Below are positions 7,198 through 51,148 of a stretch of DNA of 51,148 bases, piece after piece (the stretch's first letter is position 1; the number at the start of each line of letters is the position of its first letter). The position numbers and the translations under genes were made by a program. The notes below the pieces were generated by a model. The model made no database searches. It was not told the DNA's origin and saw nothing but the letters and a program-made list of their open reading frames with translations. The DNA is taken from IMG/VR virus record IMGVR_UViG_3300011116_001170, positions 1 to 51,148 of that record, one strand, 5' to 3'. Origin of the DNA: a virus. Taxonomy: Duplodnaviria; Caudoviricetes.

Positions 7198-7261
7198 TGC
7201 ATGTTTGACATTAAATTAATTTCCACCACTCTCAATCTTTATTTCTAAAAGTCAAGAAAAA

Positions 7262-7500
7262 ATTGCCTTTTTACAGAAGACTAACTGACTAGAACACGAG
7301 CAGCTTTCTAGCCACGTAAAACATGAATAGAAAAGCAAAGAAATTGGCTTTCGGTGCGCGCGCACCTACTCGCCAAATTACAACTATGTTCTGGAAGTTG
7401 CCTCCGAGCTTGGTTGTGTAATGAGCTACCCAAGCTTCCCTCCTGTTTAACGACCGTCTAAGTCACGTCATTACCGAGTTATGCCTTCTTCTTTAGCCAG
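7262..7500 (-). ncRNA. structured ncRNA, scaffold-1 copy A
   Basis: Closing helix CTGGCTA/TAGTCAG, 3' hairpin GTCTT-CTGTAAA-AAGGC, internal AGUA/GAA loop-E motif; both ends shared with 47949-48141. Confidence 0.65.
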
Positions 7501-7543
7501 GCTGGCTTTCAATAGTGTCGAATTCGACACCTTTAGAATTTGG

Positions 7544-7617
7544 TGGAGCGAGGCAAGGGAATCGAACCCTTCGCTTTAGCTTGGAAGGCTAAGGTATTAC
7601 CACTATACGAGCCCCGC
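7544..7617 (-). tRNA. tRNA-Gly (UCC)
   Basis: GCGGGGC/GCCTCGC acceptor, TTAGC-CTTCCAA-GCTAA anticodon arm, GGTTCGATTCC T-arm, U73, encoded CCA with a second CCA at 7541-7543. Confidence 0.95.
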
Positions 7618-7620
7618 AAA

Positions 7621-7731
7621 AATATTCTCTAAAAACAACACCTCAAAAGTTATCAGCGATTCTTTTGCGACGCGGCTAGATGTTGTTGGACTTCATAACC
7701 TAACGCCGTGATGTTGCTTTTAGAAAATATT
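7621..7731 (-). ncRNA. long-stem ncRNA, scaffold-2 copy A
   Basis: 22-bp stem 7710-7731/7621-7642 whose three non-Watson-Crick pairs are all G-U on the - strand; outer arms identical to 47523-47718. Confidence 0.65.
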
Positions 7732-46009: not shown

Positions 46010-46566
46010 TATCTAATTTCCCCCCCGTTATCAATTAGTATCTGCAAATTTTTTCCTCTGTAATCGTCAACGTAATTTTTTTCTCCATCTTTATCGAGAC
46101 TAAAAACAACAAAATCTTTTTCGTCAATTGCGCCTTCTTGACAAACTTTAACTAGAGATTGAATCATTTCGCGCGAGTGAGTTGTAGCAAAAATTTGAAC
46201 ATCGTTTTCAATTGTTGCCGCAATAACATTAAGCCAAAAATCCTTCATAACGCTATGGTGCAAACCATTTTCAATTTCTTCAAATAAAAATATTTTTTCT
46301 TCTTTTTTAAAATAGTTCAAAACTAAATCGCGCGCTTGTGGCTTAAAACCAAGTTTTCTAAGGCTTCTATACTCCGAAACATCTTTGTAATATTCTTCAA
46401 AAATATCAGGAAAAATTACTTTGTTTTCATATTTTTTTTTTATGCTTTCAAGTATTGCGGTTTTTCCAGCTCCATTTTTACCAACCAGCAAATTAATGCG
46501 TTTGCAATCATTAATTTTTAGATCTTTAATGCTGTGATAATTTTGAATGTGAATGTCTTTAATCAT
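46009..46566 (-). CDS. miniature ABC/AAA_21-type ATPase, copy 1
   Basis: GKNGAGKT Walker A, FEEIENGLH Walker B/D-loop, TTHS H-loop; only about 55 aa between A and B. Confidence 0.85.
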   Translation of the reverse strand: MIKDIHIQNYHSIKDLKINDCKRINLLVGKNGAGKTAILESIKKKYENKVIFPDIFEEYYKDVSEYRSLRKLGFKPQARDLVLNYFKKEEKIFLFEEIENGLHHSVMKDFWLNVIAATIENDVQIFATTHSREMIQSLVKVCQEGAIDEKDFVVFSLDKDGEKNYVDDYRGKNLQILIDNGGEIR

Positions 46567-46718
46567 AAGCTTTTAGTTTTCTCATTAATTCTAATTTTTC
46601 TTTTTCAAAATCTGTTTCTAAAATTTGCTTCCACCCTTCATTTCGCTTTTTTACATCAAGCCGAGCAAGAGTAAGAACTTGTTTAACATTTTTCCCCTCA
46701 ACTTCGACTTGAGCATTG
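46499..46718. repeat. 220-bp direct repeat, copy 1
   Basis: Identical by eye to 47286-47505; spans a gene junction. Confidence 0.9.
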
Positions 46719-46792
46719 TTGTCAAAGTAATGGACCGTGATCTTGCGGTTAAGGCTGTCTTTGTAGTATTCGATTTTTGGATTTTTATTCAT
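46559..46792 (-). CDS. small partner protein
   Basis: 77 aa; C-terminal about 52 aa duplicated at 47346-47505. Confidence 0.7.
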   Translation of the reverse strand: MNKNPKIEYYKDSLNRKITVHYFDNNAQVEVEGKNVKQVLTLARLDVKKRNEGWKQILETDFEKEKLELMRKLKAYD

Positions 46793-47353
46793 TCATTTTT
46801 TCTCTATAAATTTACAAAATTGTTCCGAACTAAATTCTGTTATATTGTGTAAGCAGGGGTCACCATCACGCATATTTCTTCCTTCTTTAATAAGCTGATC
46901 AGTTGCCCACGATTCAAATTTCATTACACCATTTCCTTCTTCGTTTTTATGAAGCCGATAAACCCTAATTTCTTCTTGCTCAATAAGATTGGTTTCTTCC
47001 GCTGCTTTAACCAAAGCCTCCATCATCTCGTGAGAATGAGTTGTAGCAAAAATTTGAAAATTATTAGCTAACGCCATTTTAATAATGTAACGCCAAAAAT
47101 CCTTCATAACGCTATGATGCAAACCATTTTCAATTTCATCAAATAAAATAATTTTTGAATCTTGGTTTGTTTTAAAAGCTCTCCACGAAGAATAAAATGG
47201 CGCATATTCTTTGTGGTAAGATTGTTTTATAAATTCTAAAACTGTTGTTTTTCCAACTTCATTTTTCCCGACTAGTAAATTAATCCGTTTGCAATCATTA
47301 ATTTTTAGATCTTTAATGCTGTGATAATTTTGAATGTGAATGTCTTTAATCAT
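46793..47353 (-). CDS. miniature ABC/AAA_21-type ATPase, copy 2
   Basis: GKNEVGKT, FDEIENGLH, TTHS; only about 30 aa between Walker A and B. Confidence 0.85.
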   Translation of the reverse strand: MIKDIHIQNYHSIKDLKINDCKRINLLVGKNEVGKTTVLEFIKQSYHKEYAPFYSSWRAFKTNQDSKIILFDEIENGLHHSVMKDFWRYIIKMALANNFQIFATTHSHEMMEALVKAAEETNLIEQEEIRVYRLHKNEEGNGVMKFESWATDQLIKEGRNMRDGDPCLHNITEFSSEQFCKFIEKK

Positions 47354-47505
47354 AAGCTTTTAGTTTTCTCATTAATTCTAATTTTTCTTTTTCAAAATCT
47401 GTTTCTAAAATTTGCTTCCACCCTTCATTTCGCTTTTTTACATCAAGCCGAGCAAGAGTAAGAACTTGTTTAACATTTTTCCCCTCAACTTCGACTTGAG
47501 CATTG
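47286..47505. repeat. 220-bp direct repeat, copy 2
   Basis: Identical by eye to 46499-46718 (offset 787). Confidence 0.9.
47346..47505 (-). pseudogene. 5'-truncated copy of the small partner gene
   Basis: Same C-terminus as 46559-46792; the only start (TTG 47549) lies inside an RNA stem. Confidence 0.55.
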
Positions 47506-47522
47506 CCGTTAAAGTTTTTATT

Positions 47523-47718
47523 AATATTCTCTAAAAGCGGCACTGGCAAAGGACTTTCACCTTTGCATTTGCTTAGACAGCTTCACACTAGTATTATTGC
47601 CATCCACAAGAGTATTGCTTCTGTTTATCCTACTTTTTGCAGTTTTCGGATTGTGAGTCATCTTTCGAGCCTCTACATAGTGTCTTATTCCACCACAGTG
47701 CCGCCATTAGAAAATATT
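47523..47718 (-). ncRNA. tRNA-Leu-like RNA with about 110-nt insert, inside scaffold-2 copy B
   Basis: GCGGCACTG/CAGTGCCGC stem, TG-GTG-GAATAAGA-CAC D-arm-like, GCAAAGG-TGAAAGT-CCTTTGC T-arm-like, outer AATATTTTCTAA/TTAGAGAATATT. Confidence 0.65.
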
Positions 47719-47885
47719 GGTGGAAGGGGTAAGATTTTAACTTACTAAACCAAATCAATCTAAAATATTTAGGGTAATTAATCCAACATTTTAAACATGA
47801 TTAGCGGGTAATTAATCCGCTTACTGGTGATTTGCCTACTGGTCGACCGCTGACAAATTGGCATTAACACTCGCCCACCCTTACC
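47718..47885 (-). ncRNA. expanded type-II-tRNA-like RNA ending in ACCA
   Basis: GG(T)AAGGG/CCCTTCC acceptor, GGC/GCC D-stem, ATTTGTC/GGCAAAT stem, GTAAG-TTAAAAT-CTTAC T-arm, ACCA; giant variable region. Confidence 0.65.
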
Positions 47886-47887
47886 AT

Positions 47888-48142
47888 AAAAACGAAGCCA
47901 GAACGCGCCTAAACGACGCAATAACAAATGTGTCCTGACTTCGTAGATTTGCCTTTTTACAGAAAGGCTAACTGGCTAATCTTGAACTTACGAAAGCGAT
48001 GATCGTAATTAGCTTGCTCGTATCAGAGGTTTTGCATTCAATATCACTAGCAAAACGTAACCGCTTGATGATTGAAGCCCTTTCGGGCAATTTAACTAGC
48101 TCAACTTGCGTCGTCTAATATTTCTACACTCTTCTTTAGCCG
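47888..48142 (-). ncRNA. pseudoknotted ncRNA, scaffold-1 copy B, with terminator-like 3' hairpin
   Basis: GGCTAA/TTAGCC, GCCC-GAAA-GGGC, GTTTTGC/GCAAAAC, TTACGA/TCGTAA, 13-bp hairpin plus U-tract, 12-nt long-range complementarity. Confidence 0.7.
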
Positions 48143-48152
48143 TGCCGATTGA

Positions 48153-48968
48153 TTATTTGCCCAAAGGCAACATAATATTATTTCCGCCGCTAGTAATTAC
48201 AGTCGTTGGAGCTACACCATCCCATTTATCTGCAAATGCCGCATTTACTTCAACTTGTTTTAATTCAACAATTTTAGGATTGCTGGTAATTGCGTTAGCG
48301 GTAATTCTGATTGCTTCGGCATCAGCTTTTGATTTAATAATAGTTTGGTCGGCTTCTGCTTGAATTTGCTGCTTTTTAATTTCAGCAGTTTCGGCATCTT
48401 GTTTGGCAATTACTTTATTTTGAATTGATTGTTTCCACTGAGCATTTTCAAATTCAAAGCTAGTAATACTAATATCATCAATTACGGCTAAATGATTAAT
48501 TCTTTCAGCTAATCTTTCTTTGACATATTTGCTTACTTCCGATCGATTAGAAATAAGGTCTTCTGCTGAATATCTAGCCAAAGCATCTCTGATACTTTCG
48601 TTAGCTCTCGGTGCTATCAAAACTTGAAAAATATCACCTTTTATGGTTTTTAAATTATCAAGCACTTTGTCTTCTGGGATAGCGTAAAGAACTCGGTAAT
48701 TTACACTAACTGGTTGCAAATCTTTGGTTTGAGTTCCATTTAATTGAAAAGTTTCTTGATGTTGTCTTAAAGAGAAAATTTCGATAGTTTGAAAAAATGG
48801 TAATTTAAAATGAATTCCTTCTTCTAAAACAGAATTATGGATTACGCCCGCTGTTTTTCTAATCCCTACTTCAGAAGTTTTAATGATGCTAAATGTTGAT
48901 AAAAAAACAATTATACCAATGATAAGCTTTAACAATTTGTAGCGATTTTTTATGATTTGCATGAACAT
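48153..48968 (-). CDS. SPFH/prohibitin (band 7) protein
   Basis: N-terminal TM, EGIHFKLPF, TKDLQ.V, KWDG. Confidence 0.92.
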   Translation of the reverse strand: MFMQIIKNRYKLLKLIIGIIVFLSTFSIIKTSEVGIRKTAGVIHNSVLEEGIHFKLPFFQTIEIFSLRQHQETFQLNGTQTKDLQPVSVNYRVLYAIPEDKVLDNLKTIKGDIFQVLIAPRANESIRDALARYSAEDLISNRSEVSKYVKERLAERINHLAVIDDISITSFEFENAQWKQSIQNKVIAKQDAETAEIKKQQIQAEADQTIIKSKADAEAIRITANAITSNPKIVELKQVEVNAAFADKWDGVAPTTVITSGGNNIMLPLGK

Positions 48969-50892: not shown

Positions 50893-51105
50893 TTAAATTT
50901 TAAATCCTTTAAAAAGACTTTTTAGCTCTTCTTTGTTTGGTTGCTCATCAAGAGATTTGCCAAGATGCCAATCAGTCCAATCTACACCTTTTGAACCGCT
51001 TACAACAATTTGAACAGTATCATCATCAGTAAGTTCAATTCTTAAATCGTCTTCGTCTTTCTTTGCTAATTTAATTATTTTAGTTAAATATTCTTCTAAG
51101 TTCAT
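50893..51105 (-). CDS. hypothetical protein
   Basis: 70-aa ORF following a copy of the exonuclease 3' end. Confidence 0.65.
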   Translation of the reverse strand: MNLEEYLTKIIKLAKKDEDDLRIELTDDDTVQIVVSGSKGVDWTDWHLGKSLDEQPNKEELKSLFKGFKI

Positions 51106-51148
51106 CTACTCCCCCTTAATTTTTGTTAATATCTCATCACACATTGTT
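51101..51148. repeat. imperfect copy of 228-275 (exonuclease 3' end)
   Basis: 46/48 identical by hand alignment. Confidence 0.9.

Follow-up and report, generated by a model that had tools for sequence, protein, structure and literature searches.

A conserved structured RNA within a modular RNA island of an aquatic tailed phage and its relatives

Stable small RNAs that are not tRNAs are known from the tRNA cluster of phage T4, where species 1 and species 2 RNAs are probably cut from a common transcript. GOLLD was first noticed in lake metagenomes, and Rfam 15 includes both GOLLD and ROOL. These two are presented in a recent preprint as ornate RNAs of phages and prophages (bioRxiv 10.1101/2024.12.08.627333), and another preprint reports phage arrays of non-coding RNAs associated with the UG27 reverse transcriptase, located beside the reverse transcriptase and two accessory genes (bioRxiv 10.64898/2026.09.22.753630). 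Phage genomes have otherwise been mined mainly for proteins. Here we describe a stretch on the minus strand, at positions 47,888 to 48,145 of the IMG/VR virus record IMGVR_UViG_3300011116_001170 (51,148 nucleotides, nt; the whole of this DNA is called the window below). The stretch, which we call copy B, consists of several modules strung together in an RNA island of the phage rather than of one RNA fold. Its central module, S1, belongs to a conserved family of phage-encoded structured RNAs of approximately 147 nt with five covarying helices and invariant junctions.

On the basis of sequence comparison we lean towards reading S1 as a trans-acting structured small RNA carried by the phage in a modular RNA island. 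The related aquatic phages in which it occurs set aside islands of 0.6–1.3 kb for tRNAs, tRNA-like RNAs and a number of further RNAs that are conserved and folded. Like T4 species 1 and 2, to which it can be likened by description only, S1 is phage-encoded, structured, between 100 and 200 nt long and both co-located and co-oriented with tRNA genes. Unlike them, it comes with a two-hairpin cassette and in some genomes with what appears to be a promoter of its own. As far as the preprint on GOLLD and ROOL describes them, all three are conserved phage-associated RNAs near tRNAs, but S1 at ~150 nt is far smaller. The UG27 arrays, as outlined in the preprint on them, resemble the S1 islands in having structured units of ~150 nt, short conserved motifs bracketing variable interiors and units that are gained and lost between relatives; the cargos of the S1 islands are, however, unrelated folds, whereas the UG27 units are variants of one hairpin. 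In addition, a search of the complete 51,148-bp record with PF00078 (reverse transcriptase) at E-values up to 1 gave no match, which sets the window genome apart from the UG27 arrays. Four modules make up the stretch (H5, the S1 core, a 3' motif and a long hairpin with its U-run), and these are listed here together with the parts of S1 and the second bracketed region of the window, copy A:

48126..48145, minus strand: H5, the 5' bookend hairpin, with stem GCAC/GUGU and the 12-nt loop GGCUAAAGAAGA
47975..48121, minus strand: S1 core RNA of ~147 nt, with helices P_e, P_d, P_c and P_a, the last enclosing P_b, and invariant junctions between them
48119-48095 (P_e), 48088-48077 (P_d), 48056-48029 (P_c), 48013-47975 (P_a) and 48007-47989 (P_b), minus strand: the S1 helices
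48095..48119, minus strand: local hairpin of P_e, AUUAG-A-CGAC-GCAA-GUUG-AG-CUAGU, which contains TAGACGACGCAA
48060..48066, minus strand: AAGCGGU, candidate pseudoknot strand, with its proposed partner AUCGCUU (48000-47994) in the P_b loop
47950..47974, minus strand: 25-nt 3' bookend motif CAGUUAGCCUUUCUGUAAAAAGGCA, containing a 5-6 bp hairpin whose loop is CUGUAA(A)
47888..47944, minus strand: long hairpin module, with a 13-bp stem (47944-47932/47904-47892), a 12-nt 5' bulge (47931-47920), the inner hairpin GCGUC-GUUUA-GGCGC (47919-47905) and a U-run (47891-47888)
7264..7502, minus strand: copy A, the bookends H5 (7502-7483) and 3' motif (7287-7264) around an unrelated cargo of 195 nt

Homologues of S1 were gathered by three pattern scans on the interior of copy B, the patterns fixing AAGCGGUUA and CCUCUG..ACGAGCAA. 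Genuine S1 sequences made up 13 of the 46 viral matches in the first scan, 15 of the 19 viral matches in the second and all 37 metagenome matches in the third. The other 33 matches of the first scan did not have both flanking S1 signatures and were dropped, as were four of the second that proved to be G+C-rich coding sequence (L086-L089; L-numbers label the related viral and metagenome contigs, or loci, retrieved for comparison). A covariance model, R1, was built on 37 sequences and has 156 positions and 31 pairs. It found 55 matches in 85 sources (viral and metagenome contigs), amounting to 42 distinct rows, with E-values from 1.7e-39 to 1.3e-22. The single match in the window, at 48121-47968 on the minus strand (162.5 bits, E-value 9.8e-35, model positions 1-156), is partly one by construction since the training alignment includes the window sequence, and it is the other 54 matches that demonstrate the family. 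No S1 match was obtained when copy A was searched with R1.

The structure is well conserved across the family. In alignment A3, 92.5% of the cells are paired and 23 of the 38 pairs have changed on both sides, while slid controls pair in 27–54% of cells and none of 500 shuffles reached any of five measures. P_e has nine pairs, five of them with changes on both sides, and 96.8% of its cells are paired; its inner stem is compensated as CAAC/GUUG, UAAC/GUUA, UGUU/AACA and others. P_a was recounted directly, because its value of 66.7% paired in A3 is a register artefact between 6-bp and 7-bp stems: full complementarity is found in 39 of 40 distinct rows, in 11 stem versions. The sole row without it is L100, a metagenome contig (60-85) which enters apparent sequencing-adapter sequence just after P_b and which was excluded from alignment A2. 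P_b is complementary in 40 of 40 rows, in five versions. RNAalifold recovers P_d, P_c and P_b unaided, and all five helices form in the window sequence, both in the drawn structure and in folds. U-G pairs are frequent on the S1 strand only (for instance, three pairs have them in 12 to 14 rows each), which argues for an RNA rather than a DNA element.

Strictly conserved single-stranded junctions (CCUCUGGNACGAGCAA and UCAUCGCUU) and two GNRA-type loops are set beside peripheral helices that vary. The loop of P_c is wholly replaced in many relatives, and the P_e apex differs in sequence and in length, from 7 to ~60 nt, with 17 versions besides six rows that the regular expression could not parse. 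AAGCGGU and AUCGCUU may form a pseudoknot within S1, which we put forward purely as a hypothesis: the pairing is formable in 100% of 41 distinct rows, six of its seven pairs never vary and there is no covariation. The AAGCGGU strand was part of the search patterns, so that its invariance is partly one of selection, and RNAalifold instead pairs these bases with the CUG of the CCUCUG junction, which is thus a rival partner. As a separate observation, a small motif, UACUGCGUAGCGGG(G), is inserted in varied peripheral loops: the P_e apex (L078, L092 and L115), the loop of the 3' hairpin (L093 and L110) and the segment before the 3' motif (L099 and L115). Its behavior recalls a mobile mini-element, or else a site for docking or binding that different modules share.

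The hexamer TTGACT is located 34-35 nt before the first base of S1 in 10 of 37 distinct upstream contexts, all of them in copies without H5, and a -10-like hexamer follows it after ~17 nt (read by eye from the upstream sequences). S1 would thus have its own sigma-70-like promoter in these ten contexts. In six further contexts TTGACA is found 63-67 nt upstream of S1, ahead of H5. No minus-strand promoter match was detected in the window between the upstream SPFH gene and S1, so that here S1 is presumably read through from upstream. S1 was also present in all three lake metatranscriptome runs examined, in contigs of 191, 193 and 224 nt (contig depths 41, 4.6 and 8, respectively). These cover 47949-48109, 47949-48110 and 47949-48142, that is, S1 and the 3' motif. 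Neither the SPFH gene nor 47744-47928 was covered in the same runs, which is uninformative since the relatives in them have different neighbors. Runs with small word shares (X4-X20) were set aside as evidence of habitat.

S1 is apparently uncatalogued, a new family without an Rfam match. At the gathering score, Rfam 15 (4227 models) found two tRNAs in the whole window and nothing else. The initial annotation of this DNA, made from the sequence alone, had suggested an Rfam scan; run on 47300-48400 at E-values up to 10, it yielded no family match for the stretch, only four chance-level matches of 14.6–17.9 bits, far below their thresholds. Thirteen related loci gave tRNA only, and neither ARAGORN nor the Rfam tRNA and tmRNA models made a call at 47888-48145. 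Among GenBank phage records, blastn with the 611-nt region had no match and the island of copy A was matched solely via its tRNA; relatives sought in viral contigs via the neighboring SPFH protein were not found either. Full-text literature searches returned no description of such an RNA. A prediction of 8,495 unnamed structured-RNA candidates from IMG/VR (PMC10690425) draws on the same data source and likewise deals with covarying motifs in viral contigs, some of which are tRNA-like. No motif like S1 was noted in its main text, and since the motif lists are in the supplements, S1 may already be among these candidates.

The hairpins on both sides of S1 are not specific to it. Copies A and B had initially been annotated as sharing a scaffold, but what they have in common is limited to the two bookend hairpins and is not a fold: the alignment shows only a 5' piece around GGCUAAAGAAGA and a 3' piece, CAGUUAGYCUU(U)CUGUAAAAAGGCA. 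The H5 stem covaries across loci (GCCU/AGGC, GCAC/GUGC, GCUC/GAGC, ACUC/GGGU and ACUC/GAGU) around a conserved 12-nt loop near GGYWAAGAWGA. The commonest version of the 3' hairpin occurs in 52 retrieved loci, with compensated versions GCAUU/AAUGC in two loci and CCCUU/AAGGG in one, and wobble versions GCUUU and GUCUU. By regular expression, the retrieved loci contain 49 H5 hairpins, 70 3' motifs and 41 pairs of the two. The 41 pairs enclose 30 distinct cargos of 66–437 nt, which fall into 12 unrelated clusters in a sample biased towards S1, many loci having been fetched with S1 patterns; S1 is one cluster and the cargo of copy A is a singleton. Two small hairpins bracketing at least 12 unrelated RNAs point to a step shared by all of them, be it processing, protection or recognition, and offer an experimental handle on the question of what stable RNAs other than tRNAs do next to the tRNAs of phages.

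The exact 3' motif was found in 32 viral contigs and in four short contigs of metagenome-assembled genomes (MAGs) labeled as Rickettsiales, Ca. Fonsibacter and Ca. Peribacteria; the latter are possibly mis-binned phage, and we draw no conclusion on the host. The motif follows very different RNAs, including tRNA-like ends and true tRNAs, and stands alone between tRNAs in L016 and L033. It is co-oriented with the tRNAs in 13 of the 13 loci that have both, and lies within 120 nt of S1 in 30 of 49 S1 copies (those with at least 150 nt of downstream sequence). What comes after it was surveyed in 55 distinct contexts:

26 contexts: an A/U-rich AUUAAC leader and an ATG within ~35 nt
6 contexts: the next H5
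5 contexts: a conserved CUUGAYUYUUAGRAA box
4 contexts: a strong hairpin (the long hairpin of the window, another hairpin or a tRNA)
14 contexts: other

The box, CUUGAYUYUUAGRAAUA..GUUGAGAGUG, is found directly after the 3' motif at 7256-7225 (minus strand) in the window and in L017, L020, L031 and L036; its first hexamer is -35-like and no -10 consensus follows. A shorter relative of the bookends, in which a purine-rich 5' part is joined directly to UUAGCUUUCUGUU(U)AA, occurs in L011 (5230-5262), L015 (1350-1380), L019 (7790-7820) and L085 (325-355; all in oriented coordinates). Its closing helix covaries (AAGCUAA/UUAGCUU vs. CUGGG/CCCAG) and it looks like an "empty" cassette. Copy A is itself part of a second RNA island of ~1.1 kb (8330-7198, minus strand), which comprises tRNA-Gly (7617-7544), the copy A cassette and more structured-looking sequence, with 42% G+C in 7198-7652. 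Rfam at E-values up to 1 found only the tRNA there.

Several other explanations of the bookends were tried and rejected. Pairing of the H5 loop with UUAGCC of the 3' motif fails since the third loop base varies (GGC, GGG, GGU, GAG) while UUAGCC is constant; it is also contradicted by L090, where the motif has changed to UUAUCCC and H5 has not. CCUUCU as a pairing partner of the purine run that follows H5 is excluded by the covarying H5 stems (GUGC, GAGC, GGGU). The 3' motif does not resemble a CRISPR-like repeat, the intervals between bookends being 66–437 nt with structured cargos and the two copies in the window being ~40 kb apart. It is not a sigma-70 promoter either, as a -10-like hexamer follows it solely in the AUUAAC-leader contexts. 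A stop for a single-subunit phage RNA polymerase was dismissed because the scanned proteins are of the myovirus type and no RNA polymerase was seen among the 30 window proteins scanned, with ~45 further open reading frames (ORFs) outside the scan.

The initial annotation had proposed that the stretch is a compact tertiary RNA held by three pseudoknots, or else an attenuator switch. The first proposal holds in that S1 is a compact, conserved structured RNA with covarying helices and invariant junctions, in which tertiary contacts would have space; the three pseudoknots that were named are unsupported. The complementary segments themselves are all present in the window. Positions 48117-48106 (TAGACGACGCAA) can form 12 pairs, one of them G-U, with 47921-47910 (TTGCGTCGTTTA), a run extendable to 13 pairs with two G-U. 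The latter segment does lie within a 13-bp hairpin followed by a U-tract (a run of five U, the first of which is paired and the other four at 47891-47888). The loop of GTTTTGC/GCAAAAC carries AGTGAT and ATTGAA, and ATCGCT and TTCAAT are found in another hairpin loop and in a junction, respectively. Across the family, however, TTCAAT and ATTGAA pair in 68.8% of cells, with the only C-G pair forming in 2 of 37 rows, and AGTGAT and ATCGCT pair in 57.3%, with the two G-C pairs forming in 2 and 8 of 41 rows. The residual pairing of UUCAAU with AUUGAA and of AGUGAU with AUCGCU is A-U complementarity between A+U-rich segments.

The pairing between the 5' region and the terminator loop had been expected to recur in homologues if real, and they lack it. 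A long hairpin is located within 250 nt downstream in 1 of the 49 S1 copies, the window's own. The remaining long-hairpin copies (L011, its duplicate L032, L015 with two copies, and L085) never follow S1 and are instead preceded by other RNA modules or a gene end; three further matches of the seven in the long-hairpin pattern search (L082-L084) were coding sequence and were dropped. A P_e apex identical to that of the window (GACGCAAGUUG) is found in L008 and L123 without the long hairpin, and a hairpin interior identical to that of the window in L011 and L032 without S1. The 12-nt 5' partner sits inside the covarying P_e and the 3' partner inside an inner hairpin which is itself compensated (GCGGC/GCCGC in L015 and GCAUC/GGUGC in L085). 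The terminator "loop" is not open, as ViennaRNA folds GCGUC-GUUUA-GGCGC inside it, and forcing the long-range pairing makes the fold 4.8 kcal/mol worse than the unconstrained one (-64.4 vs. -69.2). When the 24-nt interior of the hairpin is shuffled with its dinucleotides kept, it forms a run of at least 12 Watson-Crick or G-U pairs with the upstream 201 nt in 5.3% of 5000 shuffles; with those 201 nt shuffled instead, the figure is 5.4% of 2000. We infer that the 12-nt complementarity is a peculiarity of the window genome and not part of the mechanism. It serves as a caution: a striking complementarity of 12 bp seen in one sequence turned out to lack conservation and not to stand out clearly from chance.

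Another interchangeable module, independent of S1, is the long hairpin. In the window its 13-bp stem and inner hairpin amount to -24.5 kcal/mol and are followed by UUUUU. It is similar to intrinsic terminators and attenuators in that a G+C-containing hairpin with a U-run is present at 47944-47888 and an upstream segment could pair with its interior. It differs from the textbook forms of both in that this alternative pairing is unconserved, the hairpin is bulged and was not flagged by a consensus terminator scan, and the U-run is 3-5 long in the homologues. Canonical G+C-rich hairpins with U's follow the 3' motif in L071 and L028, and such other hairpins show that the window's is one of several elements that can replace each other at the same position. 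Only 3 nt past the U-run begins a tRNA-like RNA whose CCA end is encoded, with no minus-strand promoter match in between, so that any termination here must be leaky, not efficient. The long hairpin is possibly a leaky terminator or a 3'-end hairpin.

The attenuator proposed initially would be a cis-acting one, in which the interior of the terminator hairpin pairs with P_e and switches between termination and read-through into the tRNA-like RNAs and small ATPase genes. The geometry is that of a switch, for the 12-13 contiguous pairs (duplex energy -18.1 kcal/mol) would form at the expense of P_e (-4.2 kcal/mol) and of the inner hairpin alike, and the tRNA-like RNA past the U-run would depend on read-through. 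Nevertheless we regard this explanation as very unlikely, given the independent distribution of the two partners, their place within compensated helices, the chance frequency of such runs and the cost of the forced fold; moreover, S1 seems to be its own transcription unit in 10 of 37 contexts and the genes that follow differ between genomes. A more general cis-acting role, in which S1 is a ligand- or protein-sensing leader similar to a riboswitch and the 3' hairpin is the expression platform for a gene ~30 nt downstream, is unlikely as well. The invariant junctions, variable peripheral loops and GNRA-type loops do have the architecture of an aptamer, and both the frequent occurrence of the 3' motif shortly after S1 and the 26 AUUAAC leaders with an ATG are in line with this role. 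Yet the following genes are unrelated between genomes and of no consistent class, as judged without a protein-family scan of all downstream genes, and the 3' hairpin is found also after 11 other cargo types and after tRNAs. In the window S1 precedes more non-coding RNA and not a gene, and those promoter-bearing copies without H5 that were inspected run straight into other non-coding sequence with no 3' motif.

The strictly conserved single-stranded junctions beside variable helices, as well as the occurrence of S1 in arrays of RNAs that need separation, could also suggest a self-cleaving or otherwise catalytic RNA which cuts the polycistronic island transcript into modules. We consider this improbable: no Rfam ribozyme model matched at E-values up to 10, the promoter is often at the first base of S1, where self-cleavage serves no obvious processing purpose, and, as a weak argument, metatranscriptome contigs span the whole core unbroken. 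The least credible of the alternatives, with hardly any weight in our view, is that the conservation reflects a DNA-level element such as a replication origin, a recombination site or a promoter array. The islands do adjoin replication genes (DnaB, a DUF6291 protein and RecT), and at module boundaries 24 nt of the 3' motif are kept with almost no change of letter, as might be expected of a recombination linker. However, compensatory changes keep the pairing, the frequent G-U pairs would be A-C on the other strand, the orientation matches that of the tRNAs in 13 of 13 loci, RNA libraries contain the sequence and the promoters sit where transcription would begin precisely at S1 base 1.

In the trans-acting reading, which we favor, S1 would be a discrete stable small RNA, made from its own sigma-70-type promoter or processed from a longer transcript that carries tRNAs and tRNA-like RNAs. 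It would act through its tertiary fold, most likely by binding or sequestering a protein or another RNA of the host or the phage, with the conserved junctions as the binding or catalytic core. H5 and the 3' hairpin may be generic handles which define or protect the ends, or which are recognized by a protein, and the long hairpin would at most end or protect the 3' side. Several points weigh against this picture. The retrieval patterns require the invariant junctions, so that part of the invariance is due to ascertainment and more distant relatives would go unseen, and alignment A3 was fitted to the model structure. The evidence from RNA libraries consists of contigs, which are silent on strand, ends and level, and DNA carry-over is possible; the metatranscriptome S1 contigs also run on into a palindromic hairpin that is absent from the window, possibly an assembly break. 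As 26 of the 55 contexts have a gene start within ~35 nt of the 3' motif, a role of the motif in the downstream mRNA is as likely as one at the 3' end of the cargo. Finally, the 12-13 bp complementarity, itself unusual at ~5% by chance, could possibly have a role specific to this genome.

The bookends bear some likeness to parts of a tRNA, and the RNA islands are rich in tRNA-like ends. A canonical anticodon arm has a 5-bp stem and a 7-nt loop in which the anticodon is preceded by U and followed by a purine, and GUA is the anticodon for Tyr. Most copies of the 3' hairpin are laid out in this way, with five stem pairs and CUGUAAA as the 7-nt loop, which would read GUA. The hairpin in copy B of the window has an extra stem pair and a 6-nt loop. 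Compared with tRNA-Tyr, the 3' hairpin shares the stem and loop of the anticodon arm but lacks a T arm and an acceptor stem. Anticodon mimicry by the 3' hairpin is a lead and not a result. Taken further, H5 as a D-arm-like element and the 3' hairpin as a GUA anticodon arm could constitute a portable partial tRNA mimic attached to a dozen structured cargos including S1, presenting them to, or decoying, a host machine that recognizes tRNA (e.g., a defense anticodon nuclease or an anticodon-loop modification enzyme). We hold this to be unlikely; if true, it would be a modular RNA display or decoy system without a described counterpart. Two tRNA-Tyr-like RNAs that combine the anticodon loop CUGUAAA with a long variable region and a CCA end were noticed in L091 (minus strand, ~1550-1640 in oriented coordinates) and L034 (13190-13280), neither of them called by ARAGORN, and the loop at the D-arm position in L091, UUAAAGAGG, resembles that of H5.

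The tRNA-like RNA directly after the long hairpin of the window is ~168 nt long (47885-47718, minus strand) and has a T-arm-like hairpin. It was called by neither ARAGORN nor Rfam. Its bulged acceptor-like stem of 7 bp covaries between the window, L015 and L018 (GG-U-AAGGG/CCCUUCC, GG-U-AAAGG/CCUUUCC and GG-A-GAGGG/CCCUCCC). Another conserved RNA module is located at 47705-47537 (minus strand), closed by GGCGGCACUG/CAGUGCCGCU and ending in a GGUGAAAGUCC hairpin, with relatives in L015, L018 and L029. It is also found in metatranscriptome contigs (run X11, contig depth 15) and overlaps the listed TTG start of the ORF at 47346-47549.

CheckV rates the viral record that forms the window as complete (100%); its G+C content is 34%. 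Terminase, portal, HK97-type capsid, baseplate J, gpP-like proteins, RecT and dUTPase mark it as a tailed phage whose baseplate is Mu/P2-like. On the minus strand, the stretch is preceded by an SPFH/Band-7 gene (48968-48153) and followed by two small ATPase genes of the AAA_15/AAA_21 type; the 600-nt gap between them has 40% G+C and no long ORF. The genes that these phages share encode DnaB, a DUF6291 protein, an M15 peptidase, SNase, dUTPase and RecT, and no RNA-processing enzyme was recognized among them by guilt by association. Both AAA_15/21 ATPase genes and the small ORFs upstream of them are part of a tandem duplication (46435-46728 and 47222-47515; 46146-46304 and 47005-47163) with 81–93% identity and spacings of 787 and 859 nt. 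A direct repeat of 48 nt with 96% identity is found at both ends of the record (228-275 and 51101-51148). Both copies are located at the start of similar small minus-strand genes, and the repeat looks like a gene duplication rather than a terminal repeat.

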